Notes under the pieces: model-generated
The model's database searches: none
What the model was told of the DNA's origin: nothing
What the model saw: the letters and a program-made list of their open reading frames with translations, nothing else
Part shown: positions 18,171-47,471 of the stretch, one piece after another
Position numbering within the stretch: the first letter of the stretch is position 1
How the letters are laid out: each line of letters begins with the position of its first letter
Translations under genes and position numbers: made by a program
Origin: Candidatus Terrybacteria bacterium RIFCSPHIGHO2_01_FULL_48_17
Lineage (GTDB): Bacteria > Patescibacteriota > Minisyncoccia > Terrybacterales > 2-01-FULL-58-14
Direction: 5' to 3'
NCBI GenBank assembly: GCA_001822835.1
Contig: MHSS01000004.1
Span: 7,186 to 71,185, forward strand
DNA: 64,000 nt

Positions 18171-18196
18171 CCCCAAAAAAGTGGTATAATAATTCT

Positions 18197-26190: not shown

Positions 26191-28560
26191 ATGGTATCAT
26201 CACGCACTACGGCTATTGTATTAACAGGGGCGACGCTCGTCGTAGTGGTTTTCTTTTTCTTTTTCTCCCCCCGAACTTACACAGCAACGGCGACCGGAAC
26301 CCCCACGGGCCAATCCTTAACAACCGGAAACCCCTTGCTCGACACGGAACACTTCTTGCGTTCGACAATGTTTTCGGGGCTGCTTCCAAAAATTAACGAG
26401 CCGCATCGTGGCACATTCGGTGTCTCGCTCGGGGTTGAGCTTGGAGAAGATTGCGGCGGTGGAACGGAAACAACAGAAGGTGTTGGTCCTGTGTTTGATG
26501 GCGTTTCAGGCTGTAACGCCTGCCAACAAATTGCGCAATGTATCGGCAGTAAAACAGGCCACCAAGACCCCGCGTATCTATGGGATTCAACCACACAAAT
26601 CTGCGGCGTTGGCATCGAAACAGATGGGAGTACGGCAAATAGCTGTAAAGCGGGCGACGCATGCCTTGGAGTACCTATAATAGGTGGCTTCGACAGAGTA
26701 AAAGACGATGCAATAGCCATGGTGCTGAATGCAGAAACGCTTTTCCCCCGAAGTGCCGCCCCAGCAAAACTCTTACTCGCTTACACCTATGCGGTAAGCA
26801 AATGGAATCCTTTTGAAGGAGAGGGGCTTTATCCAACTGATCTGTGTGCTGCAGATAAAACGGCGTTGGAAGGATCAACTTTGTGCGGAGATCCGTTCGT
26901 AGACGGCGAGACAAAAACAATGGACATAGATGGCGACCTGGTAGCGGACGGCAAAGCGTGTCTTGCAATGCCGATTTCCAAAGATCCTGACGGCGCTGGC
27001 GCCCTATGCGGCGGGCGAATTGGAATTTCGCAAGTGCTTCCCACCATTTACGAAACCAACGGATTTCTTATCGGAACACTTACCGGAGATCCTCACCCAA
27101 ACCCGTGGAGCCAGCGCGACGGCCTCGGCGTTGCCGAATCACTCTTATCACTCAACGCATCGCTTTTTGATGAACCAACGTGTAACGCCGCGTGCGTTGC
27201 CGGGGGAAGGAGTATCGATACGTGCCTTACAGTATGCGCAACCGAAAAGGAGCGTTGTGCCATTCTTGACTCATTTTATGGGCCAGGTACCTGTCTTGCG
27301 CCGACGGCCGAACAAAAAATATTCGCCGATACAGTACAGCAATTTGAACCCGTTATGGAAAGCTTGCTCACCACGGGCGCATGTCCTGGCGCGGGAAGCT
27401 GTCAAGATATTCCCGGCTTCGACCGCTTCAATGAACTACGCGCCCTTGTTGACGAAATGGTACCTAAAGTAAAAACGCTATACGGATATGTAGTACGTCC
27501 CGAATACGTCCTTGCGGTTATGAAAATCGAATCGGGATGGAACCCCACGCTTAACCCCCTCCTGCGGTACTACTATACTCACAGCCCATTTACGGGCGGA
27601 CTGCTCTTAGGACAACTTCCGGCTTTCCAGGAGATATGTTCGGACCCAACCACAAGGGCTGAGGTTGAAGCGCAATACGGGGTTGAATTCGGAAAATGCG
27701 AAGATATGCCGGTATCTTCGGCCGGGGCAATGGGAATTGCCCAAGCCATGCCAACTACTTGGAGGGGCGTATTGCAACAAACCAATAACTTAAAGGATCT
27801 TACGGGAGACAATTATGATAATCCCTGGAACGACAGGCACGCAGTTGCTTTCGCAACATATTTCCTCGGCCAAAAGGTGGACGGCTGCGGCAGCGAAGAA
27901 AAAGCATCAGGCGCTTATTATTCCGTTGGCTGCACCGCACCCAATGAACATTACGAACGGGTAAAAACCGTTCTTCCTCTCATCGAAGACCTGTACGCCC
28001 AGGCGTGTTCTGTGCCCGGAGGAGATGGCTGTCCTCTCGTTATGCCGCCGTTTCCGCCAACGCCACCCACAACCGGCTGCTTACAACTCACCAGCGATTT
28101 CTGTCCCGCTGGCGGCTGTTTCTGTTATGCGGGAATTCACGAAGGCGTGGACATCGTAGGCGTTCGGGGGGAGCAGATCTATGCGCCGTTTGACGGAAGC
28201 GTTATAGATGTGATCGATGGTTGTATAGAAGGCGATGGAACATGCGGCGGAGGATGGGGAAACCACCTTGTGGTCAAACAGGACGCCACAAACTTCCATA
28301 TACTTTACGCGCACCTACAAGATATTCTGGTGCTTCCGGGAGAACACGTTACAAAAGGAAGGGTGCTTGGGCACGTGGACAATACCGGCCGTTCGGGTGG
28401 CGACCACCTCCATTTTGAAGTTAATACGAACGCAAATCCGCGAACTGACGACGTAGGCAAAGACGATCCAAGAAAATACTTTACCTGTATTCCTAAAGAG
28501 CCGACGTGTAAAGATTCCACCAAAGATGAATTTTGTCCGCCGACTGGAGAAACAAAATAA
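26191..28560 (+). CDS. Cys-rich secreted cell-wall hydrolase with lytic-transglycosylase-like (ESGWNP...GIAQAMP) and C-terminal M23 domains; VirB1-like by position
   Basis: N-terminal TM; M23 motif HEGVDIVG...GDHLHFEV; first gene of a 12-gene same-strand cluster. Confidence 0.7.
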   Translation: MVSSRTTAIVLTGATLVVVVFFFFFSPRTYTATATGTPTGQSLTTGNPLLDTEHFLRSTMFSGLLPKINEPHRGTFGVSLGVELGEDCGGGTETTEGVGPVFDGVSGCNACQQIAQCIGSKTGHQDPAYLWDSTTQICGVGIETDGSTANSCKAGDACLGVPIIGGFDRVKDDAIAMVLNAETLFPRSAAPAKLLLAYTYAVSKWNPFEGEGLYPTDLCAADKTALEGSTLCGDPFVDGETKTMDIDGDLVADGKACLAMPISKDPDGAGALCGGRIGISQVLPTIYETNGFLIGTLTGDPHPNPWSQRDGLGVAESLLSLNASLFDEPTCNAACVAGGRSIDTCLTVCATEKERCAILDSFYGPGTCLAPTAEQKIFADTVQQFEPVMESLLTTGACPGAGSCQDIPGFDRFNELRALVDEMVPKVKTLYGYVVRPEYVLAVMKIESGWNPTLNPLLRYYYTHSPFTGGLLLGQLPAFQEICSDPTTRAEVEAQYGVEFGKCEDMPVSSAGAMGIAQAMPTTWRGVLQQTNNLKDLTGDNYDNPWNDRHAVAFATYFLGQKVDGCGSEEKASGAYYSVGCTAPNEHYERVKTVLPLIEDLYAQACSVPGGDGCPLVMPPFPPTPPTTGCLQLTSDFCPAGGCFCYAGIHEGVDIVGVRGEQIYAPFDGSVIDVIDGCIEGDGTCGGGWGNHLVVKQDATNFHILYAHLQDILVLPGEHVTKGRVLGHVDNTGRSGGDHLHFEVNTNANPRTDDVGKDDPRKYFTCIPKEPTCKDSTKDEFCPPTGETK

Positions 28561-28565
28561 AATAT

Positions 28566-30476
28566 ATGGATACTCGTCACGCTCCACGCAATATCTTGCA
28601 ATATTTATTACTCGCCCTCGGCGGTGTAGTATTGCTTTCGGCAATGCTCGCGCTTGCATCACTTAAAGACGCTTCCAAACAAAACGTACGAGCCCTAACT
28701 CCTGAAGACATCTCCACGACGATAAACGGTATATTCAATACCGGCGACGCAAGCGCTATTACGGCTCTCGCGGGACCGGATGGGCAGATACTCGTTGGAG
28801 GCACGGTCCGTAGTGGTGGGTCGTTCGTTCCCAAGCTCGTATCACTCGAAGATGGTTCTGCCTCGAATCTTTCCTTCGGACTCAAAAACTTTTCAAGTGC
28901 TGCAGTAGAGTCGGTCGCATACGATGGCCAAACATGGCTTGTCGGTGGCGGAGATCCCTTTCTTAATCCAACATCATCGCCAAAACTCAATTCCTACGAC
29001 GGAAGCAGCTTTCAGGATTTGTCATCGTTGCTACAGAACTATAAAGGGTCAGCACAAGCGCTTGGAGGCAATGGATCATATTGGCTGATTGGCATCAACG
29101 GACTTCCCCCGTCCCAAGGCGGAGCGCTTGAAGCGGAAGTAGGGACAACAAGCACAGTGTTATTAAAATACGACGGCACAAATATTTCGGAGATCATCTC
29201 GTCTACAACAAAATCGGATCTCACTGGTGCCTGGATACGCGATATTGCGTGGAACGGGGAATATTGGCTCATCGCACTTGAAAGCGTGCCGCTTAGCGAA
29301 TCTTCTAACTTCCGTGGGCCGTACAAGAGCCGGCTTATGCGATATGATGGCACCACTCTTACGGAATTGACTGTTGGCAAATTTATTAACTACGCCGTCT
29401 TTGCGATCGGCTGGGATGGGGAGCGCTGGATTATTCCCGCCTTTGATAACATTACAAACCAAACGAGCTTCTGGTCTTATGACGGAAAAGCAATAGCACG
29501 GCTTTCCCTTGCCCTTCCTGACAACAAGGTTGTGTCTGCCTTAGCGTGGACGCGCGATAAATGGATTATTGCAACCACCAATGCAAATAATCTTCGCGAT
29601 AAAATCAGTCGAGACCTTACACAAGCAACAGACCTCACAAGGGATGCGGGTGAATTGTGGGAATACGATGGCGCGAACCTCAAAAATATTACCGTGCCTA
29701 CCGCGCTCCTTTTTGTGGAAGATATGGTATTCGACAATACTGCACAAAGTGCATATATTGGCGGCGCAAACTCGCAGGGACGCGTGGCGCTCTTATCTTT
29801 CGCAGTTCCCGCGGCACCGGAATTTCCCGATGGTACGCTCTTGCGTGCAGCAAACCGGCCTGAAGTATTCGTTATTTTTAAAAATAAGAAAAAGCACGTT
29901 CCCGACGCAAACATTTTCGGCTCATACGGCTATCGTTTCGAAAGCGTGCAAACGGTTGATGAGACAACGCTCAACCTTATTCCCGACGTGAAACTTATAT
30001 CAGCACCCGGGGATCCGCGGGTCTTCTTCCTTGACCGAGGTCAAAAACGATGGCTTCGGAATGAAACGGTGTTTGCAAGTTATGGTCTCCCGTGGGACGA
30101 GATATTATCGATAAACGCGACGGATCTTAGCGTATATCGCGACGCTCGCCTGCTCAAATCTCCAGGGGATGAACGCGTTTACTTCATCACAGGAAAAGGG
30201 CTCATCCACCACATTCCAAGCCCCGAGGCCTTTGTGTCTTATGGTAACAAATGGGAGGACATCGTTGGAGTAAGCATAGCAGAATTGCAGTCGTACGAGG
30301 TTGCCAATCTTGTCCGAAAGGCAGGCGATTTCCGCGTATATAAAGTACAGGATGGGGTAAAATATTGGGTACGGACATATGAGGCGTTTCAAAAGTTCGG
30401 ACTGGACCCAAGCAAGGTTTTGGAAATAAACGAAGTCGAATTCAACTCATATACCGAGGGCGCGCCCCTCAATTAG
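28566..30476 (+). CDS. secreted protein with WxxGxxWLI-type propeller-like repeats and four C-terminal tandem ~53-aa repeats
   Basis: Start at the MDTRH Met just after the upstream stop; repeats GDxRV(F/Y)...G.K..IP..EAF.SYG. Confidence 0.55.
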   Translation: MDTRHAPRNILQYLLLALGGVVLLSAMLALASLKDASKQNVRALTPEDISTTINGIFNTGDASAITALAGPDGQILVGGTVRSGGSFVPKLVSLEDGSASNLSFGLKNFSSAAVESVAYDGQTWLVGGGDPFLNPTSSPKLNSYDGSSFQDLSSLLQNYKGSAQALGGNGSYWLIGINGLPPSQGGALEAEVGTTSTVLLKYDGTNISEIISSTTKSDLTGAWIRDIAWNGEYWLIALESVPLSESSNFRGPYKSRLMRYDGTTLTELTVGKFINYAVFAIGWDGERWIIPAFDNITNQTSFWSYDGKAIARLSLALPDNKVVSALAWTRDKWIIATTNANNLRDKISRDLTQATDLTRDAGELWEYDGANLKNITVPTALLFVEDMVFDNTAQSAYIGGANSQGRVALLSFAVPAAPEFPDGTLLRAANRPEVFVIFKNKKKHVPDANIFGSYGYRFESVQTVDETTLNLIPDVKLISAPGDPRVFFLDRGQKRWLRNETVFASYGLPWDEILSINATDLSVYRDARLLKSPGDERVYFITGKGLIHHIPSPEAFVSYGNKWEDIVGVSIAELQSYEVANLVRKAGDFRVYKVQDGVKYWVRTYEAFQKFGLDPSKVLEINEVEFNSYTEGAPLN

Positions 30477-30480
30477 AAAC

Positions 30481-31413
30481 ATGAAACGTACGCTTATTAT
30501 TACAATCGGGGTTATTGTGGTCGGAGGGCTTGCGCTTGTCGGCGCATATTCCCTATTTCGCGGACCGACACTGGGAGTGCTTGTAAACGTATTGCGTTTT
30601 TTGGGAACACCGATTGCGCAAGAAGACACGGGAGCAACGGTTGAAGGGCCATCGTTCACAGAAGACCGTGATAGCGACGGCTTATCCGATGCCAAAGAAG
30701 AAATTTACGGCACAAACTCCGACCTCCCAGACACGGACGGCGATAACTTCACCGATGGCGCTGAAGTACGCAAGGGTTTTGACCCGAAAGTCGCCGGGCA
30801 AGGAAAAATTGCGGACAATCCGGAACTGATGCGAAATCTCACTATTGCCTATTTTGAATGGGCAAGGGAAACGTCAAACATCGAAGATCCGCAGCTTGCC
30901 GAACAGGGTATTCAAACATTTTTGATCAGCCGCAAACAAGACCGGCTCATTTTACCAACGGTTGAAGATAACGAGATTGTACGCACCGACGCCTCCGGAC
31001 CAGATGCCGTTAAAGCATACCTCGACGCCTTTGCTCAAGTAACCCTTCCCCCCGTAACCGCCTCGTACCTGGACCTTGCGGAAGGAAGTTTACAAGAAGA
31101 AACGCAAACCATTATTGATACGGTGGTTTTGGGGATCGATGCAACCTACGAGCAAATTCGCCGTATCCCAACGCCCCAAGAGGCAATTGAAGTGCAACGA
31201 GGGCAGCTTGCAACCATGAAAGCATTAAAGGAGCTTTTTTTGGATCTTAAAAGCGTCAGGCGGGATCCGGTAAAACTGATACGCGACATTTCCTGGGGTA
31301 ACGAACTTGTACTCAAATCAGCGGATATTGAGAAAAAACGCCAGGAACTTGGCTTAATTACAAATCCGGCATTTCAAAATAGTAATCAGGGGACAGGGGA
31401 CAGTAATCAGTAA
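30481..31413 (+). CDS. N-terminal TM + TSP3-like Ca-binding motif protein (DRDSDGLSD...DTDGDNFTDGAE)
   Basis: motif read directly; C-terminus encoded by heptamer repeats (QGTGDSNQ). Confidence 0.55.
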   Translation: MKRTLIITIGVIVVGGLALVGAYSLFRGPTLGVLVNVLRFLGTPIAQEDTGATVEGPSFTEDRDSDGLSDAKEEIYGTNSDLPDTDGDNFTDGAEVRKGFDPKVAGQGKIADNPELMRNLTIAYFEWARETSNIEDPQLAEQGIQTFLISRKQDRLILPTVEDNEIVRTDASGPDAVKAYLDAFAQVTLPPVTASYLDLAEGSLQEETQTIIDTVVLGIDATYEQIRRIPTPQEAIEVQRGQLATMKALKELFLDLKSVRRDPVKLIRDISWGNELVLKSADIEKKRQELGLITNPAFQNSNQGTGDSNQ

Positions 31414-31418
31414 AACAC

Positions 31419-32147
31419 ATGAAGCGGCGTATTCCTTTTTTCATAAAAACGATTCTTTTACTTGCGCTTTTTGGCATCGGCGCTGCGTTTGCCTCCCCAC
31501 AAAAAAACCAAGATGCTCTTGACGCGCAAAATGCTACAATAGATAGCGAAGCGGCTTTATTGCAAGAAGAAGAGGCCTTGGGAGCTGCCGCGACTAAATC
31601 GCAACAAGTGCGCGAACCCTTCCTTGCATCAATTCTCAATGCCGTGGGCGCGAAAGGGCAAAATGATACTCTAATCGGAACAAATGATGTTGCTGAATCA
31701 GAAATCACAAGCACTATTGGTTCCGACGCTACGGCGCTACAGCCCACGATTCAAGCACAGGCCATTGCAGAATATATCGTTGCAACGTCAAACCTTGGGG
31801 GCGATCTTGCGCCAAACCGCATGCAATCGGCCCTATCGCTTGCAAGCCAAGGAGATAAAAATATCCTACTGGACGTTGCCGGAGGATACCGAAAGCTCGC
31901 AGAGGCCTTTAACAAAGTTGCCCCTCCACCCGAACTTCAGCAAAACCACGAGGCGACAAAAGTATTGCTTGGGCGGTTCGCCGGATTTTTAGAAAATCTT
32001 TCATCGCTTCCTGCAACAGAAATTGAAGGTGCGTGGAAAAGCGGAGAGCGCAGCGCGATAACACAAGAAGCGGAGCGTTTAAATCAAGAACTGCGGGCAA
32101 TCGTAACACAATACAATGTTCAACTTCCCGTGGGAACGATCCCCTAG
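31419..32147 (+). CDS. secreted alpha-helical (Ala/Gln/Glu-rich) protein; VirB5/TrbJ-like position, speculative
   Basis: signal peptide, 242 aa, composition. Confidence 0.45.
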   Translation: MKRRIPFFIKTILLLALFGIGAAFASPQKNQDALDAQNATIDSEAALLQEEEALGAAATKSQQVREPFLASILNAVGAKGQNDTLIGTNDVAESEITSTIGSDATALQPTIQAQAIAEYIVATSNLGGDLAPNRMQSALSLASQGDKNILLDVAGGYRKLAEAFNKVAPPPELQQNHEATKVLLGRFAGFLENLSSLPATEIEGAWKSGERSAITQEAERLNQELRAIVTQYNVQLPVGTIP

Positions 32148-32159
32148 GACAAAAATTGC

Positions 32160-32300
32160 CCTAATTTCTAATTGCTCTAATTTGTCTAATCAAATCCCAA
32201 TGTCTAATACAAACAAGGTCAAAACATTTAAACATTAGAAATTCGGTTAAATTCTTTAGGTCAATTAGGTTAATTGGGTCAATTAGAAATTTAACATTCC
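32160..32300. promoter_or_regulatory. AT-rich intergenic region with three copies of AATTTCTAATT / AATTAGAAATT and direct repeat GTCAATTAG
   Basis: 32164-32174 forward, 32235-32246 and 32282-32293 reverse; the only sizeable gap inside the cluster. Confidence 0.5.
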
Positions 32301-32304
32301 TCTC

Positions 32305-34449
32305 ATGTTTTTCTGTAAGCAAATGAATGTTCTTGTTTTGCTTTTGCTCGCAATAATAACGGGTTTCTTTGTGGCGCATCCTGCTCATGCCGCTGTTCCT
32401 GTTGCGGTTGTGCAATTTGACGCCGGGACGGATTTTGAAACCAGCATTCTTTCGTTCCTTGGGGATCTTTTCGACAAACTAACCACAAAACAACTCGAAT
32501 CAAGTGCGGCTTTTGAACTCTTGAAAGTTGAAAAAGCGCGCGAGGACGTAAATAAGCTAATGCAAGAAGTGCAGGAAGAGCTTACGGATTATGGAATCGC
32601 CCTTGCTGTGCAGGACTACCGTGTTTCCAAAGATCCTCGCTGTCTTGAAGAACCCTCGACCTGTCCCACCGCAAATGAGCTTTCTATTTCTCCCTACAAA
32701 CAGTCGCGTATTATTAACAATGTATACGATTATATTTTTGAGGAGCCGCGTGAAAAGGCGCGTGTTTATACAATGTGCTATTTTAATCTTTTCATCTGGG
32801 ATCAGGCCGGGATACTTGATGACATGTTCGGTGATGCCGGCCTTATGGGAGCCCCTCAAGACCCTCCAGACGGTCTTTGTGCGATAGGGGGGAAAGATGT
32901 CACGCCAGGGGGGCCCACGAAATGCACGTATGGAAGCAAAAGCACGCGCCAAAGCATCAACAAACTTCGGGAAACCAGAGACGCAATGCTTTTTGGGCTT
33001 CGTCGAGCAAACTATTACCAACTCGATTACCCGCAAATATTCTTGTTTGGCGACTGGATGGGATATCCGGAAACGAGTAACGCCGCCATCCAACAGTATG
33101 GCCTTGCGGGACGGGGGGAATTCGATAGTGCGGAGATGCGCAAAATGTCGCTTGCTAATTGCATCCCGATTCTTGCAGATACATCCACGCCCCTTCTTCC
33201 AGATCCTGCGCTTCGTTTTCACAACGTTTCTTTAGAGCAGGTAATGGCGGTTCTGCCCTCGCTTATAGAGGGCACCGCAGGACGCCCACAATCAACGCTC
33301 ATTGAGCTCAGGGCGGTACAAGAGGATAAAAATAATATTGACGGCGTCGCCCGTATCGCCATCAGTAATATTTCACGGATTATCAATGAAACCCAAAAGG
33401 AGCGTGAGCTTACATATCTTGCCGGCCAAGGCATCAGGCCGGAGCGTTTATATCTTGAGCTCAACAACAAAGACGAAGCCGGCGAACCCATAGATCCTAT
33501 TCGCGGAGGGCCCGGTGATCTTATTCAATACGAATATGATACCGGCTACATTGTTGCCCCCGCAGTGGTGCTTCTACAAAAAATGCAAGCGGCAAACCAA
33601 GCAATGTTTGATCTAGCGCAAAAATCGTTTTTGTATCTTGATCCGGAAAGGACGTCGCTCTCCACGCTTAATCGGTATAATGTGGTCAGTAACGCAGACA
33701 CTTGTTATGACGATGATGGCAATACGTTCCCGTGTGCTTTTATCGGAGGGTTTTTCGAACGGCAAATTTGCAACGTAGTTCCTAATAATCCTTCCGGCAC
33801 TTATTGTTTCCCCGTCGATCCGTGGCTCAAACCACGCACTGCGTTCAGGTCGGCGCCCGACGCAAAACGGGTTGGCCCTAATTTTAAGACAAGCCAGGAT
33901 TCTCCATTGCCGATACTCTCAAGCGAAGGCGGGCTTCCTGCGCCTTGGGAGGATGAAAGCGCGTACGTGGCACTCGGAAACGAAAAAGTGGGGGCTGCGG
34001 CCGAAAGAGGAAGCCAACAATTCGATCTGAAATATAAGATAAGTGATTATAAATTCGATACACCTAAAGTTGCATATCCTGGTATTTTAGAAAGTGCTGG
34101 GTGGAACAAGGGCGACAACATCGGTTTAAAGGCGCTCGGGGCGGATTATGCCATCAACGACTGGTATGATCGTGTGTTTGAAATGTATGAACCATATCGT
34201 AACGAAAATACGCTTACATTTGGGCCAGGGGAGTGGACATGTTACATCGCAACGTGGTTCAGATTCCGACAAGTGGAGGGGAATCTTGTTCCAACTTTTG
34301 CCAGCACGCGCACCGTTATAGATATCGGCGAACGAACATTTAGTATTTTGCCGACCGCAAAAATTATACAAGGCCCGACAGTTGCGGACGCGCTCCAAAA
34401 TCAAATCGACGACTATTGCGGCGAGCGCCTATCCGATACTAGCTACTAA
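32305..34449 (+). CDS. large secreted protein (714 aa), hypothetical
   Basis: signal peptide ...AHPAHA-AVP; no motif. Confidence 0.5.
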   Translation: MFFCKQMNVLVLLLLAIITGFFVAHPAHAAVPVAVVQFDAGTDFETSILSFLGDLFDKLTTKQLESSAAFELLKVEKAREDVNKLMQEVQEELTDYGIALAVQDYRVSKDPRCLEEPSTCPTANELSISPYKQSRIINNVYDYIFEEPREKARVYTMCYFNLFIWDQAGILDDMFGDAGLMGAPQDPPDGLCAIGGKDVTPGGPTKCTYGSKSTRQSINKLRETRDAMLFGLRRANYYQLDYPQIFLFGDWMGYPETSNAAIQQYGLAGRGEFDSAEMRKMSLANCIPILADTSTPLLPDPALRFHNVSLEQVMAVLPSLIEGTAGRPQSTLIELRAVQEDKNNIDGVARIAISNISRIINETQKERELTYLAGQGIRPERLYLELNNKDEAGEPIDPIRGGPGDLIQYEYDTGYIVAPAVVLLQKMQAANQAMFDLAQKSFLYLDPERTSLSTLNRYNVVSNADTCYDDDGNTFPCAFIGGFFERQICNVVPNNPSGTYCFPVDPWLKPRTAFRSAPDAKRVGPNFKTSQDSPLPILSSEGGLPAPWEDESAYVALGNEKVGAAAERGSQQFDLKYKISDYKFDTPKVAYPGILESAGWNKGDNIGLKALGADYAINDWYDRVFEMYEPYRNENTLTFGPGEWTCYIATWFRFRQVEGNLVPTFASTRTVIDIGERTFSILPTAKIIQGPTVADALQNQIDDYCGERLSDTSY

Positions 34450-34458
34450 CGGAGGTTT

Positions 34459-36465
34459 ATGAAGTCCTCGCACAAAACAATCCTGGTTTTCGCGCTAACA
34501 TTGCTGATTCTTTCCATATTCCTTCCGCATCATGCAGACGCGTTTCTTGGCGTAGATTTGCCGGATCCCCGCGAAGTGGCGCTTAAAATGTTCGATGCGA
34601 TACTTACGATTATTCGAAACGCCGCCGCATCCTTACTGCATATTGCAGCACAATTTCTCAAATATGCCTTGGTTGATTTAACGGGCTCAATGCCCTTTTA
34701 CAATAACTTTTTTGTGCAGGCCGGCTGGCAAGCAGTAAGGGACTTCGCGAATCTTGGATTCGTCCTTTTCTTGCTTGTAGCCGCAGTAGCCACCATTTTG
34801 GATCTTCAAAATTATGGCTGGAAACGTATTATACCCCGTCTCATTATCGTGGCTCTTTTGGTAAACTTTAGTTTGCCGCTCGTCGCTTTTGCCATTAATA
34901 TTGCAAACCTCATGATGGGCTTTTTCACAGTGAACGTCGCGTCAGAAGCCGGATATTCGGATATCGGGGCGGCACTCATTGCTGGCTTTCGTGTGGGTGA
35001 TATTACCGCGGACCCGTCGCTGGAAAGCTTAAAAATAGCAAACGGGGGAGGAGATATAAGTACGACCATGACATCAATCATCAATAATATCACCGCCATT
35101 ATTTTCTTTCTCATCGCGGCAGTTATTCTGTTTTGGCTTGCGATGTACCTTATCGTGCGCATTATTGCGCTCTGGGTATTGATAATCCTTTCACCCTTGG
35201 CAATTGTGGCGAGCATCTTTCCGGCAACGCAAAGCATGTTTAGCCGGTGGCTGCACCAGCTCACGCATTGGACGTTTTTTGGAATTGCTGCTGCTTTTTT
35301 CTTATGGCTTGCCACGTTGCTCATCTTTACGGTCAATACGCAAAATTGGGCGGATATCCAGCTCGTTGGAGGGGCAAACTATCTTTCGCTGACATCAAAA
35401 GCCGGCCTCCTCTTTTCCTACGCAACCACCGCGGTTTTCTTGGTCTTGGCGTTACAAACGGCAAAAGGGGCTTCGCAGGGATTTGCACAAATGGTGGTAA
35501 ATACTGCCGGAGGATTGGCAATGGGTGCGGTCGGATTTGCTGCAGGTGCGGCAGGACGGCCGGCATTGCGTCGAGCCAGACGAGCCGTTGCTGAAAGCAA
35601 GACGGTCCGCGGGTTTGCAGAAGGAACGGGGAAGGCCTTGGAACGCATTCGAAACGTACCTATTTTGGGCGGGGCAACACGAGGGGCGCGAGAAGGACTT
35701 ATGGGTCTCGCTGGAGCCGGTCCAATGAAGGACGAAACGGAAAAGGAATACAAACGACTCAAAGCATCAAATCTCTCGCCCATACAAATTGCACGGCTTG
35801 CTTCTAACACCGACAGCCAGGGGCTAAAAGTTGCGACTGGGAGGGCGCTTAGCGAGACGAACGCATATGATAAGGCAACTACCGACGATGAGAGACATAT
35901 GGTACGGCGCCTGCAAAACCAAGCTTATGTTATTGCTGAATCTACCGGCAATACTAAAGAGATTGAAAATCTTGCCTATAACGATAAAGGGTATGCGGAA
36001 CGCGCACGCGAACGAGGGATTGGATATTTCAAAGACCTCAGCGATGAAGAAATCAATAAAAGATTTGTGGGAGAGCATACGTCTTCCGAAATCCTGCAAC
36101 AGCCGGAAACCGCCTTCAACATGTCTGCTGCGAATGTCCGAGGAGTAGCACAGCGTGGTTCGCCCAAACAACGGAAGGCCTTGGCCGAAGCAATTTTGGG
36201 AACGGAACAAAAGCCCGTCACAGAACCGCCCCAAGGTGTCAGCGAAGAGCAATTCCGCTTTATGCAACAACTCGTGCAATTAAATGCCGCCCTTGCAGAA
36301 ACCATTGGGCGCACCAAGGCATTCGGCCGCGCGCAAGCGGAAGTTGCAGCGGCACAAGAAGCAATCGGAGGCGATGTCACCGACATACGTCAGCAATTAC
36401 AAACACCGCCGCAAGAACCGAAGCAGGAACCGGAAGGGACAGACAAAGAAAATAAAAATGTGTAA
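34459..36465 (+). CDS. polytopic membrane protein (6-7 TM) with a hydrophilic C-terminal domain; VirB6/TrbL-like
   Basis: TM topology and size; follows the secreted proteins and precedes VirB3/VirB4-like genes. Confidence 0.45.
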   Translation: MKSSHKTILVFALTLLILSIFLPHHADAFLGVDLPDPREVALKMFDAILTIIRNAAASLLHIAAQFLKYALVDLTGSMPFYNNFFVQAGWQAVRDFANLGFVLFLLVAAVATILDLQNYGWKRIIPRLIIVALLVNFSLPLVAFAINIANLMMGFFTVNVASEAGYSDIGAALIAGFRVGDITADPSLESLKIANGGGDISTTMTSIINNITAIIFFLIAAVILFWLAMYLIVRIIALWVLIILSPLAIVASIFPATQSMFSRWLHQLTHWTFFGIAAAFFLWLATLLIFTVNTQNWADIQLVGGANYLSLTSKAGLLFSYATTAVFLVLALQTAKGASQGFAQMVVNTAGGLAMGAVGFAAGAAGRPALRRARRAVAESKTVRGFAEGTGKALERIRNVPILGGATRGAREGLMGLAGAGPMKDETEKEYKRLKASNLSPIQIARLASNTDSQGLKVATGRALSETNAYDKATTDDERHMVRRLQNQAYVIAESTGNTKEIENLAYNDKGYAERARERGIGYFKDLSDEEINKRFVGEHTSSEILQQPETAFNMSAANVRGVAQRGSPKQRKALAEAILGTEQKPVTEPPQGVSEEQFRFMQQLVQLNAALAETIGRTKAFGRAQAEVAAAQEAIGGDVTDIRQQLQTPPQEPKQEPEGTDKENKNV

Positions 36466-36480
36466 AACGAAACAGAAGTT

Positions 36481-37341
36481 ATGCCGGTTTTAACGCCTCA
36501 ACTATCTCCGCAACTTTTGGAAACCGCAGGGGACGAACGCACAGAAAAAGCCATCGCTTGGATCGCACAACGTTGGAAACTAAAAAGTGCTGACGATTTT
36601 GTGGCACAAGGCGCAAATTTTCAAGAAGCCCTCAGGCAATCACAAGTTTTTGTCCTTTCGCAAACAGTAGGAGAAGTGCTTGCGGGCAAGCTTCACCCCA
36701 ATTTTGTGGTAAAAACCCTTGAAGAACGCCTGAATATTCCACGCGACCGTGCACGCGACATTGCACATGACGTTTCGCGCGAAATTTTCTCGCGCGTACG
36801 AAGGGAGCTCATGGATTATTACCGGATAACGCCCGAACAGAAAGTTGCGCACCCCTCTCGGGACGCGGACCTACGCGGACAGGACGCAGACAAACACGGA
36901 CAACAGGAAGAGCCGATGAAGCCGTCAATGGCGGAGAGCATACAGGGTACAGGGTACAGGGCACAGGAATCAGAAGACGGGGGACAGGGAATAGAAATTG
37001 GGGAACCGGGATTGGCAATCAGTAATCAGAAATCAGAAATCGGGGATCGGGGGATGGAAGTTAAGGAAGAAGCACCGGCGCCGCCGCAAGAATCAGAATT
37101 AAAAGAGATCCCGCAACAACCACCTTTTGATGCGACGTTAGGCAAACCAAGTTTGGTAGAACAAGTGGAAGAAAAGTCGTTTCCCGAAAACATACAGCAA
37201 ACAGGGGACAGGGGACAGGAAACCGGGGCACAGGGGACGGGGGACGGGGGACAGGGGACAGTAAACGGAAAACCCGTTGCCGGACACGATAAACCGGAGC
37301 ACTTTGAGCCAGGACCGGGCCAGGTTATCGATCTAAGATGA
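36481..37341 (+). CDS. hypothetical protein whose C-terminal half is encoded by heptamer tandem repeats (QGTG-rich)
   Basis: repeats at 36941-37055 and 37199-37263. Confidence 0.5.
   Translation: MPVLTPQLSPQLLETAGDERTEKAIAWIAQRWKLKSADDFVAQGANFQEALRQSQVFVLSQTVGEVLAGKLHPNFVVKTLEERLNIPRDRARDIAHDVSREIFSRVRRELMDYYRITPEQKVAHPSRDADLRGQDADKHGQQEEPMKPSMAESIQGTGYRAQESEDGGQGIEIGEPGLAISNQKSEIGDRGMEVKEEAPAPPQESELKEIPQQPPFDATLGKPSLVEQVEEKSFPENIQQTGDRGQETGAQGTGDGGQGTVNGKPVAGHDKPEHFEPGPGQVIDLR
36941..37055. repeat. about 17 consecutive degenerate heptamers (ACAGGGT/ACAGGGC/TCAGAAA/TCGGGGA ...)
   Basis: strict 7-nt periodicity read directly. Confidence 0.9.
37199..37263. repeat. (GGGGACA)-type heptamer array, about 9 units
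   Basis: aacaggggacaggggacaggaaaccggggcacaggggacgggggacgggggacaggggaca. Confidence 0.9.
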
Positions 37342-37354
37342 GTTGAAAATTAAA

Positions 37355-37405
37355 GGTTAAGAGTTAAGAGTTAAATTCTTAATTCTCGATTTTAGATTTT
37401 TAATT
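37355..37405. repeat. AT-rich heptamer-periodic array (GTTAAGA GTTAAGA GTTAAAT TCTTAAT ...) in an intergenic spacer
   Basis: read directly. Confidence 0.8.
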
Positions 37406-37407
37406 TA

Positions 37408-37860
37408 TTGAGTGTGCAAGTCAAAGTTCCCAAATTCATTGATATTGAAGATAAAGTTATTTTTGGCTTAACCTGGCGCCAATTTTTATTCTTGGGCGTA
37501 GGTGGCGGAGTCGGCATTGTTGCGTTCTATGTTTTAGTACAACCCTTAGGAACAGCAATCGGTGTTGTTTCTATGACCATTGGTGCAATCTTTGCGTTAG
37601 TCAAAATAAACAACCGCCCCATGCATATATTTGTATATTCATTGTGGAACTATTTTTTTAACCCACGCCAATACACATGGAAAAAAGAAGCGACCGCGGC
37701 AAGGACAGCGAAAGTGACCAAAATCACAAAAAAGGAGACGCCGGCAACTCCCAAAACCATAACTCCGGAACGACTAAAACGCCTTTCGGTATTGCTAGAT
37801 ATCCAAGGACAAAAACAATCTGATGCCAATGTCAAAGTCCAAAGCTCAAATGCCAAATAA
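37408..37860 (+). CDS. PrgI/VirB3-like small membrane protein
   Basis: N-terminal VPKFIDIEDKVIFGLTWRQFLFLGVGGGV followed by two TM helices, about 150 aa, located before the VirB4 genes. Confidence 0.55.
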   Translation: MSVQVKVPKFIDIEDKVIFGLTWRQFLFLGVGGGVGIVAFYVLVQPLGTAIGVVSMTIGAIFALVKINNRPMHIFVYSLWNYFFNPRQYTWKKEATAARTAKVTKITKKETPATPKTITPERLKRLSVLLDIQGQKQSDANVKVQSSNAK

Positions 37861-37960
37861 AACCCAAAATCCCAAGCTCAAATACCAAAACCCGTGCGTT
37901 TTTATGCTTTGGATTTTCGTCATTGATTTGTCATTTGGATTTTGAAATTTGGATTTAGTA
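37836..37960. repeat. about 125-bp imperfect palindromic element with 7-nt periodicity (CCAAA-rich arm / cgtgcg centre / TTTGG-rich arm); copy 1
   Basis: shares AAATCCCAA and CATTTGGATTT signatures with the copy at 45836-45960. Confidence 0.6.
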
Positions 37961-37964
37961 GCCG

Positions 37965-38633
37965 TTGCTTATGCCTCAAGTATCCACCCAATCGTTTCTT
38001 CAGTTTGAGTTCGTCCGTGAAGGCGCGATTGTCCTTCGGGGCGGAGGACTGCGTGCAATTTTAATGGTGTCGGGATCAAATTTCGGCCTGAAATCCCAGG
38101 AAGAGCAAGAGGCAACGGTATATGCATTTCAGAATTTCCTCAATTCTCTTGATTTTGACATCCAAATAACCATACATTCGCGTAAAATTGATATCGAACC
38201 CTATCTTGCAACGCTTGGAGAACGTCTTGAACGGGCAGAGACCGATCTTTTGCGCGTGCAGACGCGCGAATATATCGAGTTTATCCGTTCTTTTGTTGAA
38301 GGCGCAAACATTATGGCAAAGCAGTTTTTTGTCATAGTGCCATACGACCCGGTAACCGGCACCAAAGAAAGGGGAGTTGTAGCAAAAGCAAGGGCACTGC
38401 TTCCTGTTTCAAAAAAAGAAACGGTTTTAGAGGAAGAAAATTTTGAAACAAATCGCAAACAGCTTATGGAGCGCGTTGAGTTTACGGTTCAGGGCCTGCA
38501 TAAAACCGGTCTTCGCTCAACCGCGCTCTCAACGGAAGAGATTATAGAACTTCTGTGGAAGCTTTATAATCCGGAAAAGGAAGCAAAGGGACAAATGCCA
38601 AATTTTGAAGAACTTGGTGCGGCTTCGGACTAA
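37965..38633 (+). CDS. VirB4/TrbE N-terminal domain (CagE_TrbE_VirB-like) as a separate ORF
   Basis: LRGGGLRAILMVSGSNFGLKSQEEQEATVYAFQNFLNSLDFDIQITIHSRKIDIEPYL matches the VirB4 N-domain pattern; in-frame stop, then 78-nt gap. Confidence 0.6.
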   Translation: MLMPQVSTQSFLQFEFVREGAIVLRGGGLRAILMVSGSNFGLKSQEEQEATVYAFQNFLNSLDFDIQITIHSRKIDIEPYLATLGERLERAETDLLRVQTREYIEFIRSFVEGANIMAKQFFVIVPYDPVTGTKERGVVAKARALLPVSKKETVLEEENFETNRKQLMERVEFTVQGLHKTGLRSTALSTEEIIELLWKLYNPEKEAKGQMPNFEELGAASD

Positions 38634-38643
38634 CCTGCACAAT

Positions 38644-38686
38644 AAGTTTCTATGAGTTTCGCCGAGCAAATATCTATAAATTTCTG
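38644..38686. promoter_or_regulatory. copy of the AAGTTTCTATGAGTTTCGC..GAGCAAAT element in the gap between the two VirB4 ORFs
   Basis: about 27/32 identity to 25261-25292. Confidence 0.5.
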
Positions 38687-38711
38687 AAACTAATGGATTG
38701 AAATTGATTGT

Positions 38712-40493
38712 ATGAACCCCCCTAAAGCTCAACTTTCTCCCGAAGAACTCTTTGAACGAGGCGTTGCAACCTTGAAGGATTTGCTTGCGCCATCAGCCCT
38801 GGAGTTTTCCCAAAACACCATAAAAATAGGCGAGCGCTATACGCGCATTCTTTTTGCGTTTTCCTACCCCCGCTACCTTACAACCAACTGGCTTTCACCT
38901 ATTATTAACCTTGATCAAACCATTGACGTAACCATGTTTGTTCAGCCGGTAGAGACCGCGGAGATGCTAAAAAAAATGGAAAAGAAGGTCGCCGAGGTTG
39001 AATCGCAAATGATGGAACGAGAAGAAAAAGGGCGGGTGCGCGACCCGATGCTGGAGACCGCCTATAAGGATCTTGAGGATTTGCGCGATAAATTACAGCA
39101 GGCCCGTGATAGAATGTTTCAGTTTTCGCTTTATATCACTATCTGGGGAAGATCCGAAGAAGAGCTTGCTTCCATTGAAAATACAATTCGCTCCCAACTT
39201 GAAGGACGGCTTGTATATATGAAGCCGGCAATTTTTCAACAAGAAGAGGCCCTTAAATCCGTGCTGCCGTACGCGGATAATTGGCTTAAGATATCAACAA
39301 ATTTGGACGCGGAAACCATTGCAACGGCCTTCCCGTTTATTTCGCTGGATCTCACCATGAACCACGGGGTGCTTTACGGCATTAACCGGCACAATAATTC
39401 CCTCGTTATTTTTGACCGCTTCTCGTTACCCAACGCAAATTCCGTAATGTTTGGAATTTCCGGAGGGGGAAAATCCTATGCAGCAAAACTTGAGGTGCTG
39501 CGCGCGCTTATGTTTGGCACCGATGTTATAGTGGTTGACCCGGAGAACGAATATGAGCATTTGGCCCGTGCAGCTGGCGGAACTTTCGCCCATATCTCTC
39601 TTACCGCAAAACAGCATATCAACCCTTTCGATTTGCCGCCCATAACGGAAGACGAAAGCCCTAAAGAAATTTTTAGATCCCATCTCCTCGAAGTCGTGGG
39701 GCTACTGAAAGTAATGCTGGGCAAAAATATCACCCCGGATGAGGAAGCGATTGTTGACCGTGCGGTTACGGAAACCTATGCCTCACGCAATATCACATCG
39801 GAAAGCGATTTCTCGATCATCACAGCCCCGCTTTTTTCCGATTTCCTCTCGGTGTTAGGAGATCTTGAGGGAGGAAGAGTTCTTGCGCAACGGCTTGAAA
39901 AATTTACAAAGGGTGCGTATGCGGGTTTCTTGGATCAACCGACGAACGTGGATATTAACCGCCGCTTTATTGTATTTAGCATCCGGGATCTTGAAGAAGA
40001 GTTGCGACCGATTGCGATGTACATTATTTTACATTTTATCTGGAATCGTATACGCGCATCTTTAAAAAAACGGCTTTTGGTTATTGATGAAGCGTGGTGG
40101 CTTATGCAAAAAGAGGATGGCGCCGCGTTCTTGTTTTCCATCGCCAAGCGGGCTCGAAAATATTTCCTTGGCATCGCAACCATCACCCAAGACGTAGCGG
40201 ATTTTATGGGATCCCCCTACGGCCAGCCCATTGTCGCAAACTCATCGCTTCAATTGCTCTTTAAACAGTCGCCCGCAACTATTGATGCCGTGCAGAAAAC
40301 GTTTAACCTTACGGACGAAGAGAGGTATCTGTTGCTGGAAAGCGCGGTAGGAGACGCATTGTTTTTTGCCGGTCTTAAACATGTGGCTATACAGGTTGTG
40401 GCTTCGTACACAGAAGATCAGATTATTACATCGGATCCTTCCCAGCTTTTGGCAATAAAGCGCGCACGAGAAAACCTTACACAAAAACAGTGA
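38712..40493 (+). CDS. VirB4-family conjugative/T4SS ATPase, C-terminal NTPase part
   Basis: Walker A GISGGGKS, Walker B LLVIDEAWWL, ITQDVADF motif; 593 aa. Confidence 0.85.
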   Translation: MNPPKAQLSPEELFERGVATLKDLLAPSALEFSQNTIKIGERYTRILFAFSYPRYLTTNWLSPIINLDQTIDVTMFVQPVETAEMLKKMEKKVAEVESQMMEREEKGRVRDPMLETAYKDLEDLRDKLQQARDRMFQFSLYITIWGRSEEELASIENTIRSQLEGRLVYMKPAIFQQEEALKSVLPYADNWLKISTNLDAETIATAFPFISLDLTMNHGVLYGINRHNNSLVIFDRFSLPNANSVMFGISGGGKSYAAKLEVLRALMFGTDVIVVDPENEYEHLARAAGGTFAHISLTAKQHINPFDLPPITEDESPKEIFRSHLLEVVGLLKVMLGKNITPDEEAIVDRAVTETYASRNITSESDFSIITAPLFSDFLSVLGDLEGGRVLAQRLEKFTKGAYAGFLDQPTNVDINRRFIVFSIRDLEEELRPIAMYIILHFIWNRIRASLKKRLLVIDEAWWLMQKEDGAAFLFSIAKRARKYFLGIATITQDVADFMGSPYGQPIVANSSLQLLFKQSPATIDAVQKTFNLTDEERYLLLESAVGDALFFAGLKHVAIQVVASYTEDQIITSDPSQLLAIKRARENLTQKQ

Positions 40494-40497
40494 CACT

Positions 40498-40824
40498 ATG
40501 AACGAAGAGGAGTATACTGGAAACGAAGAGGAGGAAGAGCTTACACAACGCCAAGCGCTCGCTCAAGAGCGCGGCGACGCACAAACAGCAGGGCACTATT
40601 TAAAACAACAAGCGCAACAACAGGCAGTGCGCGCTGGAATGCAAATGGCAAAACAAGTGGTAAGACGTGTTGTGGTACAAGCGGCAATTCGAGGCATCAT
40701 CATACTGCTTACCAATCCTGTCGCGCTAGTTATAGAAGGCGTTATTTTGCTTATCATTATCGTGGTTCTTATCGTAATATACGGCGGATTCTATATCCAA
40801 GAAGGGGCCTCCCAAATTTTATGA
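40498..40824 (+). CDS. small membrane protein with acidic N-terminus and a 35-aa hydrophobic hairpin
   Basis: starts 5 nt after the VirB4 stop; overlaps the next gene by 4 nt. Confidence 0.45.
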   Translation: MNEEEYTGNEEEEELTQRQALAQERGDAQTAGHYLKQQAQQQAVRAGMQMAKQVVRRVVVQAAIRGIIILLTNPVALVIEGVILLIIIVVLIVIYGGFYIQEGASQIL

Positions 40825-41906
40825 AGAGGAAAATCTCCTATAGTTATCACAGGCTACTGCTTTGGTGTATAGGCGCTTTTATGGCAATGGCGATTCTTCC
40901 CTTTGTCGCCAACGCTATGTTGCCTGCAGACGGCGGTCTTGGTGGCGTGGGAGCCCCGGGTCAAAGTCAAAACATCAGCAGCCCTCGTCCGAAACTCGAA
41001 GAGGGTCTTGAGCTTCCTCTCCCCGGCGCCCCTGATTTTTCAACCGGCGATCCTGCTGACATTATCGGCTGGTTCTTTTTCTTTACGATGGGCATAGTCG
41101 GGATCCTGGCGCTTATTATGTTGGTTGTCGGGGGAGTGCAATTCACCGCTTCTGCCATTGATCCCGAAGCACGAACCCAAGCACGTAATCGGATACGAGC
41201 AGCCCTTACCGGCCTTTTGCTTGCACTCGTTTCATTTGTGCTTCTCTATACGCTCAATCCAGATCTTGTCAATTTGCGTAGCCCCTCGCTTCCGTGTGTT
41301 TCGTGTGCTTGCCTTGATAGCACGCGAGCGGCTCCCGGACTGAATGTAAATAATTGCGTACAATCAGATCAAGCGGCCTATAGTACGGGCATCCGTGAAA
41401 CAGGAGCGTTTAATACCGACCCCTGTTTGACCTCTGCGATCGCAAGTATTGATCCTAATAGATTAAAGCTCTTGGACGACGCCGGACGCACAGCCGAATA
41501 CGCGAGGGCGTCGGCTGCAAAGGGATGCGGATTTGTTTTTATTGCGGACGATGACAAAACCAATACCACGTGTGCGGCCTATTGCATGCAGAAAAAGGCA
41601 GATAGTTGTGACTATCGCAACGAGCCGGGGTGTAGTTGTAAATCAATCTATGAGCAAACAAAAAACTGGGCATGCAAAACCATGGGTCTCAATACCGTAT
41701 GCAATGAAGAAAAAGACAGCCCCGATGATTCCCAACTTTTCGGATGCCCGCTCCTTGGTTCGTATGTCGAATACGCGACAAATCTCGGCGGAGATTACGA
41801 TGCCTGTAAGTGCGCATCTACAGTAACATGTGCGGATGACGAGGTTATCTCGCTCGTGAAGGATACATTTAAGGAATTGCCGGGCTGGGCGGGTGGCTGC
41901 AACTAA
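40821..41906 (+). CDS. VirB2/TrbC-like pilin module (signal peptide + 2 TM) fused to a C-terminal domain of about 210 aa with 20 Cys
   Basis: cleavable signal ...VANA, hydrophobic pair IIGWFFFFTMGIVGILALIMLVVGG / LTGLLLALVSFVLLY separated by a charged loop. Confidence 0.4.
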   Translation: MKRKISYSYHRLLLWCIGAFMAMAILPFVANAMLPADGGLGGVGAPGQSQNISSPRPKLEEGLELPLPGAPDFSTGDPADIIGWFFFFTMGIVGILALIMLVVGGVQFTASAIDPEARTQARNRIRAALTGLLLALVSFVLLYTLNPDLVNLRSPSLPCVSCACLDSTRAAPGLNVNNCVQSDQAAYSTGIRETGAFNTDPCLTSAIASIDPNRLKLLDDAGRTAEYARASAAKGCGFVFIADDDKTNTTCAAYCMQKKADSCDYRNEPGCSCKSIYEQTKNWACKTMGLNTVCNEEKDSPDDSQLFGCPLLGSYVEYATNLGGDYDACKCASTVTCADDEVISLVKDTFKELPGWAGGCN

Positions 41907-45858: not shown

Positions 45859-45960
45859 ATATCAAATAAAATCCCAAACCCCAATGCCAAAAACCGAACG
45901 TGCGGGTCTTGGACATTACGTCGTTGGACATTTATTTGGCATTTGGATTTGTCTTCATGG
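45836..45960. repeat. about 125-bp imperfect palindromic heptamer-periodic element; copy 2
   Basis: aaatccaaataacaaaatccaaatatcaaataaaatccc ... cgtgcgg ... ggacatttatttggcatttggatttg. Confidence 0.6.
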
Positions 45961-47468: not shown

Positions 47469-47471
47469 ACC

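Follow-up and report, generated by a model that had tools for sequence, protein, structure and literature searches.

Which machine is encoded by twelve co-directional genes that lie about 6 kb from dnaA in a Candidatus Terrybacteria genome, and what would the cell use it for? We addressed this question in a window of 64 kb, the whole stretch of DNA that was analysed (contig MHSS01000004.1 of Candidatus Terrybacteria bacterium RIFCSPHIGHO2_01_FULL_48_17). The listing of open reading frames (ORFs) contains twelve plus-strand ORFs at 26191-41906, labelled g1 to g12 in the following, so that every gene of the same-strand cluster described in a first-pass annotation was found in place. With a probability of roughly 80%, we read the locus as a chromosomal, non-conjugative type IV secretion system (T4SS) of the Patescibacteria clade, which is inherited vertically, derives from the monoderm conjugation machinery of the MPF_FATA type and is carried here by a Terrybacteria-like member of the Paceibacteria. 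Its most likely use is interaction with a host cell.

Domains of VirB4, TrsD-like, PrgI, VirB6-like, pilin and cell-wall hydrolase proteins were identified in the cluster. In the case of g10 (38712-40493, +), the product matches NF045971, the NCBIfam model of CD1110-type VirB4 proteins, with 388.7 bits against a curated equivalog cut-off of 325, the alignment spanning positions 176-733 of the 752 in the profile; it is a VirB4 ATPase of the MPF_FATA/CD1110 type. Pfam adds P-loop_TraG (84.7 bits), AAA_10 and DUF87, and comparison with solved structures returned VirB4 of PDB entry 4AG5 (E=3e-40) and TrwK (E=7e-9). Walker A (GISGGGKS, 39453-39476) and Walker B (LLVIDEAW, 40074-40097) motifs are both present. 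Membership of this ATPase in an FtsK/HerA clade, which would have undercut the earlier interpretation, disagrees with the NF045971 score and the 4AG5 match; as far as its sequence tells, g10 is a genuine VirB4 and not an FtsK/HerA relative. Among the best 120 of 8000 homologs, all those with a named source were CPR (Candidate Phyla Radiation)/Parcubacteria or an unclassified bacterium, at 61-93% identity. For wider comparison, a set with one genome per species was used, comprising 80 Paceibacteria loci whose VirB4 is 57-62% identical.

The preceding gene, g9 (37971-38633, +, with ATG 37971 a likelier start than TTG 37965), encodes a TrsD/TraC-like protein that corresponds to about 120 N-terminal residues of the VirB4 model. 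Its earlier description as a VirB4 N-domain was borne out by alignments to the N-termini of four full-length VirB4/TrsD models, namely VirB4_plasma of NCBIfam (E=3.5e-11), the CD1110 VirB4 model (profile positions 13-118, E=2.7e-4), TrsD (E=2.5e-3) and TIGR00929 (positions 17-151, E=4.5e-3). TraC_F_IV is matched by 14 of 28 g9 orthologs, and a precomputed match to PF26593 (TraC-like) is on record; the family profile had no matches in PDB. Because g9 covers positions 13-118 and g10 positions 176-733 of one and the same 752-position model, VirB4 is split after its first domain. This separate N-domain gene was found in 78 of the 80 related loci, and in none of them is it fused to VirB4. Other systems have VirB3-VirB4 fusions, with which the order PrgI-g9-g10 is collinear.

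Several trivial origins of the split could be ruled out. The two genes share a reading frame; several stop codons lie between them and they are separate in every relative, which is incompatible with a frameshift, an in-frame stop, recoding or a pseudogene. A duplicate of the N-terminal region of g10 was rejected as well, since hhalign detected no similarity between the two and g9 is precisely the segment that g10 lacks. As to an alternative genetic code with UGA as a sense codon, the long ORFs of the window are closed by all three kinds of stop codon, hence the standard bacterial code applies.

The gene before g9, g8 (37408-37860, +), encodes a PrgI/VirB3-like protein, as had been proposed, with 46.8 bits to Pfam PrgI (cut-off 27) and two transmembrane (TM) segments at amino acids (aa) 26-44 and 49-67. 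At its 3' end and in the spacer between prgI and the trsD-like gene (37812-37970), the 159 nucleotides (nt) of the window are replaced by a different 78-nt sequence in six contigs from other assemblies that are otherwise 99.7-100% identical to the window. It is the sole segment at which all six differ, the exceptions being small indels in contigs L003 and L004 and short unaligned stretches around 44.0-44.1 kb. Folding calculations give a long and imperfect hairpin for the window version (-35 kcal/mol, z=-4.1) and weak folding for the 78-nt version, and the variant alters the disordered C-terminal tail of PrgI.

In the case of g6 (34459-36465, +, 668 aa), an extended VirB6/TrbL-like protein, the earlier claim of six to seven TM segments and TrbL likeness stood in part. 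The window copy scores 22.8 bits against Pfam TrbL, just below the cut-off of 25.9, and shows about six TM segments within aa 8-333, followed by a hydrophilic C-terminal part of about 330 aa; however, TrbL is matched by 4 of 26 g6 orthologs (best E=1.9e-7) and TrbL_4 by one, and the counterpart in the related lineage L088 gave a weak TrbL_3 match. Searched against PDB, the profile of the VirB6-like family returned low-complexity matches only.

The last gene, g12 (40821-41906, +), encodes the VirB2-type pilin. Pfam T4SS_pilin is matched with 33 bits (cut-off 26.6) and the Mycoplasma pilin-like family NF045849, from integrated conjugative elements (ICEs), with E=7e-7. The 361-aa product consists of a signal peptide, a linker of about 45 aa, a two-helix hydrophobic hairpin (aa 78-145) and a C-terminal domain of 211 aa with 18 Cys, so the Cys-rich fusion that had been noticed at first sight is real. 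The AlphaFold2 (AF2) model agrees with a pilin hairpin (predicted local distance difference test, pLDDT, 74-91) and leaves the C-domain below 50; a Foldseek search of PDB with the g12 structure found nothing significant.

T4SS families were accordingly found for g6 orthologs, g8, g9, g10 and g12, which supports the initial type IV secretion interpretation. The possibility that the parts other than VirB4 have no T4SS likeness is contradicted by the PrgI and T4SS_pilin scores, the TrbL matches of orthologs and the four models aligned to g9.

To what extent this arrangement is shared was seen in the comparison set. By tblastn among the 80 loci, VirB4 was detected in 80, the TrsD-like protein in 78, PrgI in 72, the VirB6-like protein in 55 and the pilin in 45, and of the flanking genes YidC in 57, DnaA in 53 and KsgA in 35. 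The gene order is stereotyped. Its 5' part comprises ksgA, a TM protein of about 300 aa, a secreted Cys-containing protein of 500-850 aa, VirB6, a soluble protein of 190-390 aa and PrgI; the 3' part continues with the TrsD-like gene, VirB4, a small TM protein, a TM protein of about 335 aa, the pilin, a TM protein of about 420 aa, and yidC, rnpA, dnaA and dnaN. Iterated local hidden Markov model (HMM) searches in 82 related loci, which also gave the family counts for g3 and g7, identified g3 and g7 as true members of two positional families in this order. Since the core order recurs in 80 other species-level genomes, the arrangement is not a product of chance. At closer range, 12 near-identical contigs that come from several metagenomes, GCA_001822935.1 from Rifle groundwater among them, encode an identical g6 protein and have an identical gene order.

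In the window, ksgA lies upstream of the cluster and jag-yidC-rnpA-dnaA-dnaN downstream, with dnaA at 47838-49232 and the replication origin presumably beside it. The five downstream genes (45955-50548; jag with an R3H domain) stand in the classical origin-adjacent order, the probable rnpA (47306-47683) having no Pfam match. In most related Paceibacteria the T4SS directly abuts yidC.

These data bear directly on a rival reading, in which the locus serves conjugation or mobilisation, or is what is left of an ICE, with the genes for its coupling protein and relaxase at another site in the genome. In favour of it, g10 belongs to the CD1110/ICE type of VirB4, and Mycoplasma ICE families are the best matches of both the pilin and g9; the search covered 64 kb of the genome, and VirD4-like genes lie away from virB4 in most Patescibacteria genomes according to a survey of 3,035 genomes (Quiñonero-Coronel et al. 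2025, PMC12102498). Nevertheless, in agreement with the first-pass annotation, Pfam searches on nearly all non-overlapping ORFs of at least 80 aa in the window returned no VirD4 or other type IV coupling protein (T4CP), no relaxase and no VirB11. A mobile-element context was not found in the window either: no integrase is adjacent, the GC content of the cluster (0.485) is close to that of the remainder (0.494), and the only tyrosine recombinase (12925-13845) is XerC/D-like and 12 kb away. In the same survey, relaxases were found in only 103 of the 3,035 genomes. The position beside ksgA and dnaA is fixed across the 80-species set, with the KsgA and DnaA counts given above, which argues for vertical inheritance rather than mobility. 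Together with the missing relaxase, this fixed position makes a conjugative system very improbable; lacking coupling protein and relaxase, the machine would not perform relaxase-dependent conjugation.

The composition of the cluster also recalls a second kind of system. Helicobacter ComB works without a coupling protein, a relaxase or VirB11, and one may ask whether the locus is a DNA-uptake machine like ComB or the archaeal Ced system, taking in DNA of the host or the environment, which would supply nucleotides or genes and feed ComM and recombination functions. The set VirB2/B3/B4/B6 without T4CP, relaxase and VirB11 does resemble ComB minus its outer-membrane parts. Both competence-related neighbours pointed out at the outset were confirmed by Pfam, ComM at 20502-22016 and a PilB-type T2SSE ATPase at 60046-61746 (-), and ComM, encoded on the strand of the cluster, precedes it by 4 kb. 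In addition, a weak and local similarity of g10 to CedB was detected (E=2.8e-11, far under the CedB cut-off), Patescibacteria are described as lacking nucleotide biosynthesis (PMC10633639), and T4SS loci of the ABY1 class co-localise with comF, recG and radA (PMC12102498). On the other hand, between ComM and the cluster stand five unrelated genes, two of them in the orientation of ComM and three in the opposite one, and no DNA-binding component was recognised in the cluster. A further observation comes from Southlakia, where competence needs type IV pili and ComEC: deletion of comEC ends transformation and leaves viability intact, and the T4SS is still essential (PMC10633639; PMC12857230). The essential role is therefore not ComEC-linked DNA uptake, and for this reason we consider uptake the weaker rival and improbable here. 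A non-conjugative T4SS used in host interaction, which the first-pass annotation had suggested, agrees with the view expressed in PMC10633639, PMC12102498 and PMC12857230.

Two further genes within the core deserve attention. The 286-aa product of g7 (36481-37341, +) has no TM segment and no Cys; a conserved N-terminal domain of about 120 aa is followed by a low-complexity repeat tail. Searches in Pfam, NCBIfam and PDB, the last also with the family profile, gave no match. Family HMM searches recovered 67 proteins in 59 of the 82 loci, all encoded on the plus strand at 1.1-4.4 kb from the downstream virB4 and in every case placed between VirB6 and PrgI. This cytoplasmic family could be a Patescibacteria-specific stand-in for the missing coupling protein or substrate receptor. 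Within g7, a degenerate 7-nt (ACAGGGG)/21-nt tandem repeat at 37194-37268 encodes the Gly/Gln-rich tail. In contig L004 one 7-nt unit is missing. The resulting frameshift, for which slipped-strand variation or an assembly error may account, gives a product of 258 instead of 286 aa.

In the case of g11 (40498-40824, +, 108 aa), an acidic, Gln-rich N-terminus precedes a C-terminal TM anchor. No known family was found in Pfam or NCBIfam and no relatives were detected in the 82-locus set; the counterpart in L089, the closest relative, is 41% identical. As most relatives have a small protein with one to three TM segments directly after virB4, g11 is their positional counterpart.

How far the apparatus extends upstream is less clear-cut. 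The junctions from g1 to g12 measure 5, 4, 5, 175, 9, 15, 66, 110, 78, 4 and -4 nt; six of the eleven are thus at most 9 nt and one is 15 nt, in rough agreement with the reported spacing of mostly 10 nt or less, whereas the remaining four, at 66-175 nt, do not conform. Regarding starts, public gene callers place those of g8 and g12 slightly later. With no more than 21 nt between the end of ksgA and g1, the left border of the cluster cannot be drawn from spacing; it is functional rather than structural.

The first of the upstream genes, g1 (26191-28560, +), encodes a secreted or membrane-anchored protein of 789 aa with a Cys-rich N-terminal region and 34 Cys in total. Both domains of the SLT + M23 hydrolase described earlier were recovered in Pfam (Peptidase_M23, 72.4 bits; SLT, 29.6 bits), M23 structures were matched with up to E=2e-9, and the catalytic motifs are intact: IESGWNP at aa 446-452 (the E-S of SLT), and HEGVD at 650-654 and HLH at 739-741 (the zinc site of M23). 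The VirB1-like role attached to it derives from adjacency, here and in L088 only, and g1 is thus a candidate for a VirB1-like wall-opening enzyme. While an M23 protein stands at the g1 position in L088, this is not so in L087 and most other Paceibacteria, and tblastn among the 80 loci gave a single M23-domain match, on the opposite strand.

The second gene, g2 (28566-30476, +, 636 aa; ATG 28566 is likelier than TTG 28533), has one N-terminal TM segment, six YDG-type repeats and four C-terminal repeats of about 52 aa. The repeats of the supposed propeller/repeat protein are thus readable in the sequence; for a propeller, the sole HMM hint is DUF5122 (E=0.076), and membership in the cluster follows from adjacency only. 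There is no match in Pfam, NCBIfam or PDB and no homolog in the 82 related loci, and g2 is specific to this lineage.

The situation is different for g3 (30481-31413, +, 310 aa). Its bitopic product has a TM segment at the N-terminus, motifs for Ca binding (DRDSDG, DTDGD) and a C-terminal domain that is helical, and the predicted TSP3 motif was verified (TSP3_bac, 28.8 bits, cut-off 25). The family counts 50 proteins in 42 of the 82 loci, at the head of the cluster and with a median distance of 7.5 kb to the downstream virB4; in PDB, the family profile matched the Ca-motif only. The product of g4 (31419-32147, +, 242 aa) is a helical protein with a signal- or TM-like N-terminus, and would be exported or anchored. 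A homolog stands at the matching position in L088 (33% identity, E=2e-19). No relatives of g4 were detected in the related-locus set, and BLASTP between g3 and g4 was not significant; hhalign of g4 against the g3 family gave E=1e-4 and 57% probability, which tentatively suggests a divergent paralog of the g3 C-terminal domain.

The last upstream gene, g5 (32323-34449, +, with 32323 the likelier start), encodes a secreted protein of 708 aa with 12-13 Cys. Homologs were found only in the two closest lineages, L087 and L088, always directly 5' of the VirB6-like gene, and its predicted structure (pLDDT 60) matched no fold. On contig L003, small indels break g2 and g5 into two ORFs each (4171-6023 and 7870-9991), which are probably assembly errors and may alternatively reflect pseudogenisation in that population.

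From these observations it could be argued that only g6-g12 form the secretion apparatus and that g1-g5 are unrelated envelope genes that happen to lie upstream in the same orientation. Apart from the one opposite-strand M23 match, g1 and g2 have no counterparts in related loci; a gap of 175 nt separates g4 from g5; and g1 is contiguous with ksgA, a DUF348-G5-DPBB (Rpf/RlpA-like) lytic transglycosylase directly upstream of ksgA (24344-25252) and a LysM-LysM-M23 hydrolase (23043-24260, -), which places three cell-wall hydrolases, g1 included, within 5.5 kb. Against such a separation, the g3 family heads the cluster in about half of the loci, g5 homologs always directly precede VirB6, and L088 carries M23 proteins at the g1 position. 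Furthermore, VirB1 homologs with M23 domains are tied to virB4 specifically in Paceibacteria (PMC12102498), and virB4-adjacent hydrolases are essential in Southlakia. We regard the restriction to g6-g12 as unlikely, though a good deal less so than DNA uptake, and membership of all of g1-g5 in the apparatus, above all of g1 and g2, is uncertain.

A further feature of the locus concerns the C-terminal domain of the pilin. Its signal peptide and the positively charged loop between the two helices place, by the positive-inside rule, the C-terminus outside the cell. Only three relatives of the C-domain were found among 1.84 billion representative proteins. Compared with L089, identity amounts to 90% for a VirB4 fragment, 83% for DnaA, 78% for YidC and 71% for DnaN, to 62% for the N-terminal (hairpin) part of the pilin and to 28% for its C-domain; on these alignments, the C-domain is the fastest-evolving part of the locus and lineage-restricted. 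Extensions as such are widespread: 51 of 64 pilin ORFs in the 82 loci extend by at least 50 aa (median over all 64, 158 aa), and among the 51 extended pilins 38 have at least four Cys and 45 an even number of them. A pilin fused to a C-terminal Cys-rich domain is thus the norm in the class Paceibacteria.

A possible, if on balance doubtful, interpretation is that the single T4SS pilin of Paceibacteria is a pilin-adhesin fusion, whose C-domain would be displayed on a VirB2-type pilus or stalk and evolve fast to set host specificity, as an alternative to the multi-pilin arrays of Saccharibacteria. The frequency of extended pilins, the handful of C-domain relatives and the contrast between C-domain and VirB4 or DnaA identity fit this idea.

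Combining the components, we infer for the proposed T4SS a mode of assembly, a substrate traffic with its direction, and the formation of a pilus as follows. PrgI/VirB3 (g8), g9 and a hexamer of VirB4 (g10) would dock on the VirB6-like channel (g6) to give an ATP-driven translocon of the cytoplasmic membrane, while the SLT + M23 hydrolase (g1) would open the cell wall locally. VirB4 would extract the pilin (g12) from the membrane, and the latter would assemble outside the cell into a pilus or stalk, with the variable, disulfide-rich C-domain exposed on its surface. The exported or anchored g2-g5 and the cytoplasmic g7 may complete the envelope-spanning part. Such a machine would mediate contact-dependent exchange with a host cell, either as protein export or as uptake of host molecules.

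A number of points weigh against this reading. No product of the cluster matches a VirB8-like protein (PrgL/TraM/TcpC, NTF2-like) in Pfam, NCBIfam or PDB profiles. A coupling protein could be encoded outside the 64 kb examined; VirD4-like genes are present in most Patescibacteria genomes, usually far from virB4, as reported in PMC12102498. Being absent from most related loci, g1 and g2 may serve general cell-wall metabolism, a view that the adjoining LysM-M23 and G5-DPBB hydrolases suit. The pilin C-domain yielded no confident AF2 model, and a pilus would have to polymerise with a 211-aa domain on each subunit. Promoter and terminator scans gave counts no higher than the shuffled expectation and thus define no operon boundaries for the cluster.

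The surroundings of the T4SS locus show additional features. Between the pilin and jag/yidC, 41903-45858 (-) holds two tandem Wzy_C genes (O-antigen ligase/polymerase-like) and a polysaccharide flippase, found in this sub-lineage only. Compared with L089 they are 53-65% identical, thus diverging faster than the adjoining housekeeping genes (71-83%). The 3' end of the first Wzy gene contains a perfect heptamer repeat (AGGGAAT, four copies, 42007-42034), with equal copy number in related contigs. Rfam searches found nothing inside the cluster and only three tRNAs in the window, distant from it. Between tRNA-Lys (5264-5337) and tRNA-Leu (6873-6957), a free-standing LAGLIDADG_3 homing-endonuclease-like ORF of 215 aa lies at 6223-6870, and a 27-nt inverted repeat (5205-5259) just precedes tRNA-Lys. 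A surface module of Gram-positive type follows at 7034-10932, consisting of a 733-aa DUF11/SpaA-like/CARDB repeat protein, a sortase and a secreted CAP-domain protein. After pnp, two ORFs of 154 and 452 aa (17672-19498) have no Pfam or NCBIfam match; at the equivalent position, L087 carries a 422-aa ORF without Pfam match. At 56247-57602 (-), a 451-aa protein contains two Lamin Tail Domains, a surface or secreted domain common in CPR genomes.

How does the locus relate to known systems? With the conjugative MPF_FATA systems (CD1110 of C. difficile CTn2, TrsD/TrsE of pGO1, Prg of pCF10, Mbov_0395/0397 of the Mycoplasma ICE) it shares the CD1110-type VirB4, TrsD and PrgI, the pilin-like hairpin of the Mycoplasma ICE and a monoderm architecture without VirB7/9/10. 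It differs from them in that no relaxase, T4CP, mobile-element context or VirB8-like protein (PrgL/TraM) was detected in the window; moreover, it is chromosomal and vertically inherited, and its pilin bears a large extra domain. Helicobacter pylori ComB, like the Terrybacteria locus, is a T4SS built on VirB2/3/4/6 homologs without coupling protein, relaxase and VirB11, but it has a diderm B7-B10 core, and no homology was found beyond the common T4SS families; as to a ComB-type role, Saccharibacteria genetics argue against ComEC-linked uptake as the essential one.

A closer functional parallel is offered by Southlakia epibionticum ML1, where Wang et al. (2023; PMC10633639, Tn-seq table) found the orthologous cluster SEML1_0006-0019 essential for epibiotic growth. 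That system resembles Gram-positive conjugative systems, has pilins and no recognisable coupling or relaxase proteins, and lies near the chromosome start. VirB4, PrgI, a large VirB6-like protein, peptidoglycan hydrolases and VirB2-type pilins are common to both loci, and beside VirB4, at the TrsD position, Southlakia has SEML1_0009, a protein of about 290 aa of unknown function. The differences lie in the hydrolases, lysozyme-like there and SLT + M23 here, and in the pilins, six short ones of 103-185 aa there and one of 361 aa with a Cys-rich C-domain here. Essentiality has been shown in Southlakia only.

The best agreement is with the Patescibacteria-clade T4SS of Quiñonero-Coronel et al. (PMC12102498), who describe a monophyletic Patescibacteria VirB4 clade nested in MPF_FATA, with TrsD as the commonest partner of virB4, PrgI, VirB6 and VirB2 pilins near it, and ksgA, rnpA, dnaA and dnaN nearby in Paceibacteria. 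The Terrybacteria locus has the separate TrsD-like gene by virB4, PrgI, a probable VirB6, a VirB2-type pilin and the position beside ksgA, rnpA, dnaA and dnaN, as well as an M23-bearing candidate VirB1-like hydrolase and the lack of a nearby relaxase or T4CP; its VirB4 has its nearest relatives in CPR, among those of the best 120 of 8000 homologs with a named source. A 2025 review (PMC12857230) calls the Patescibacteria systems the newest members of the T4SS superfamily, and T4SS pilins are reported to rank, in Paceibacteria-methanogen cultures, with those secreted genes of unknown function that have the highest expression (PMC10936435). Since the system type was described in 2023-2025, its kind is not new. 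In the available text of published Patescibacteria T4SS accounts, chiefly PMC12102498, the g3 family, the g7 family and the Cys-rich pilin domain were not found; together with the pilin-domain fusion and the rapid divergence of the C-domain, these two families are the modest additions made here. They matter in that few machines besides the Patescibacteria T4SS have been shown to be essential for epibiotic life in CPR bacteria. Host recognition and substrate handling are tasks to which the published surveys assign no parts, and the accessory families and the pilin domain are concrete candidates for them. Compared with other Paceibacteria, this lineage adds g1, g2, g4 and g5 and has two Wzy-type genes and a flippase between pilin and yidC, and it does without the single-TM genes of about 335 and 420 aa that most of them carry after virB4. 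Altogether, the locus is a clean Paceibacteria example of the clade, with a split VirB4, two conserved accessory families and a single pilin with a fast-evolving Cys-rich domain.

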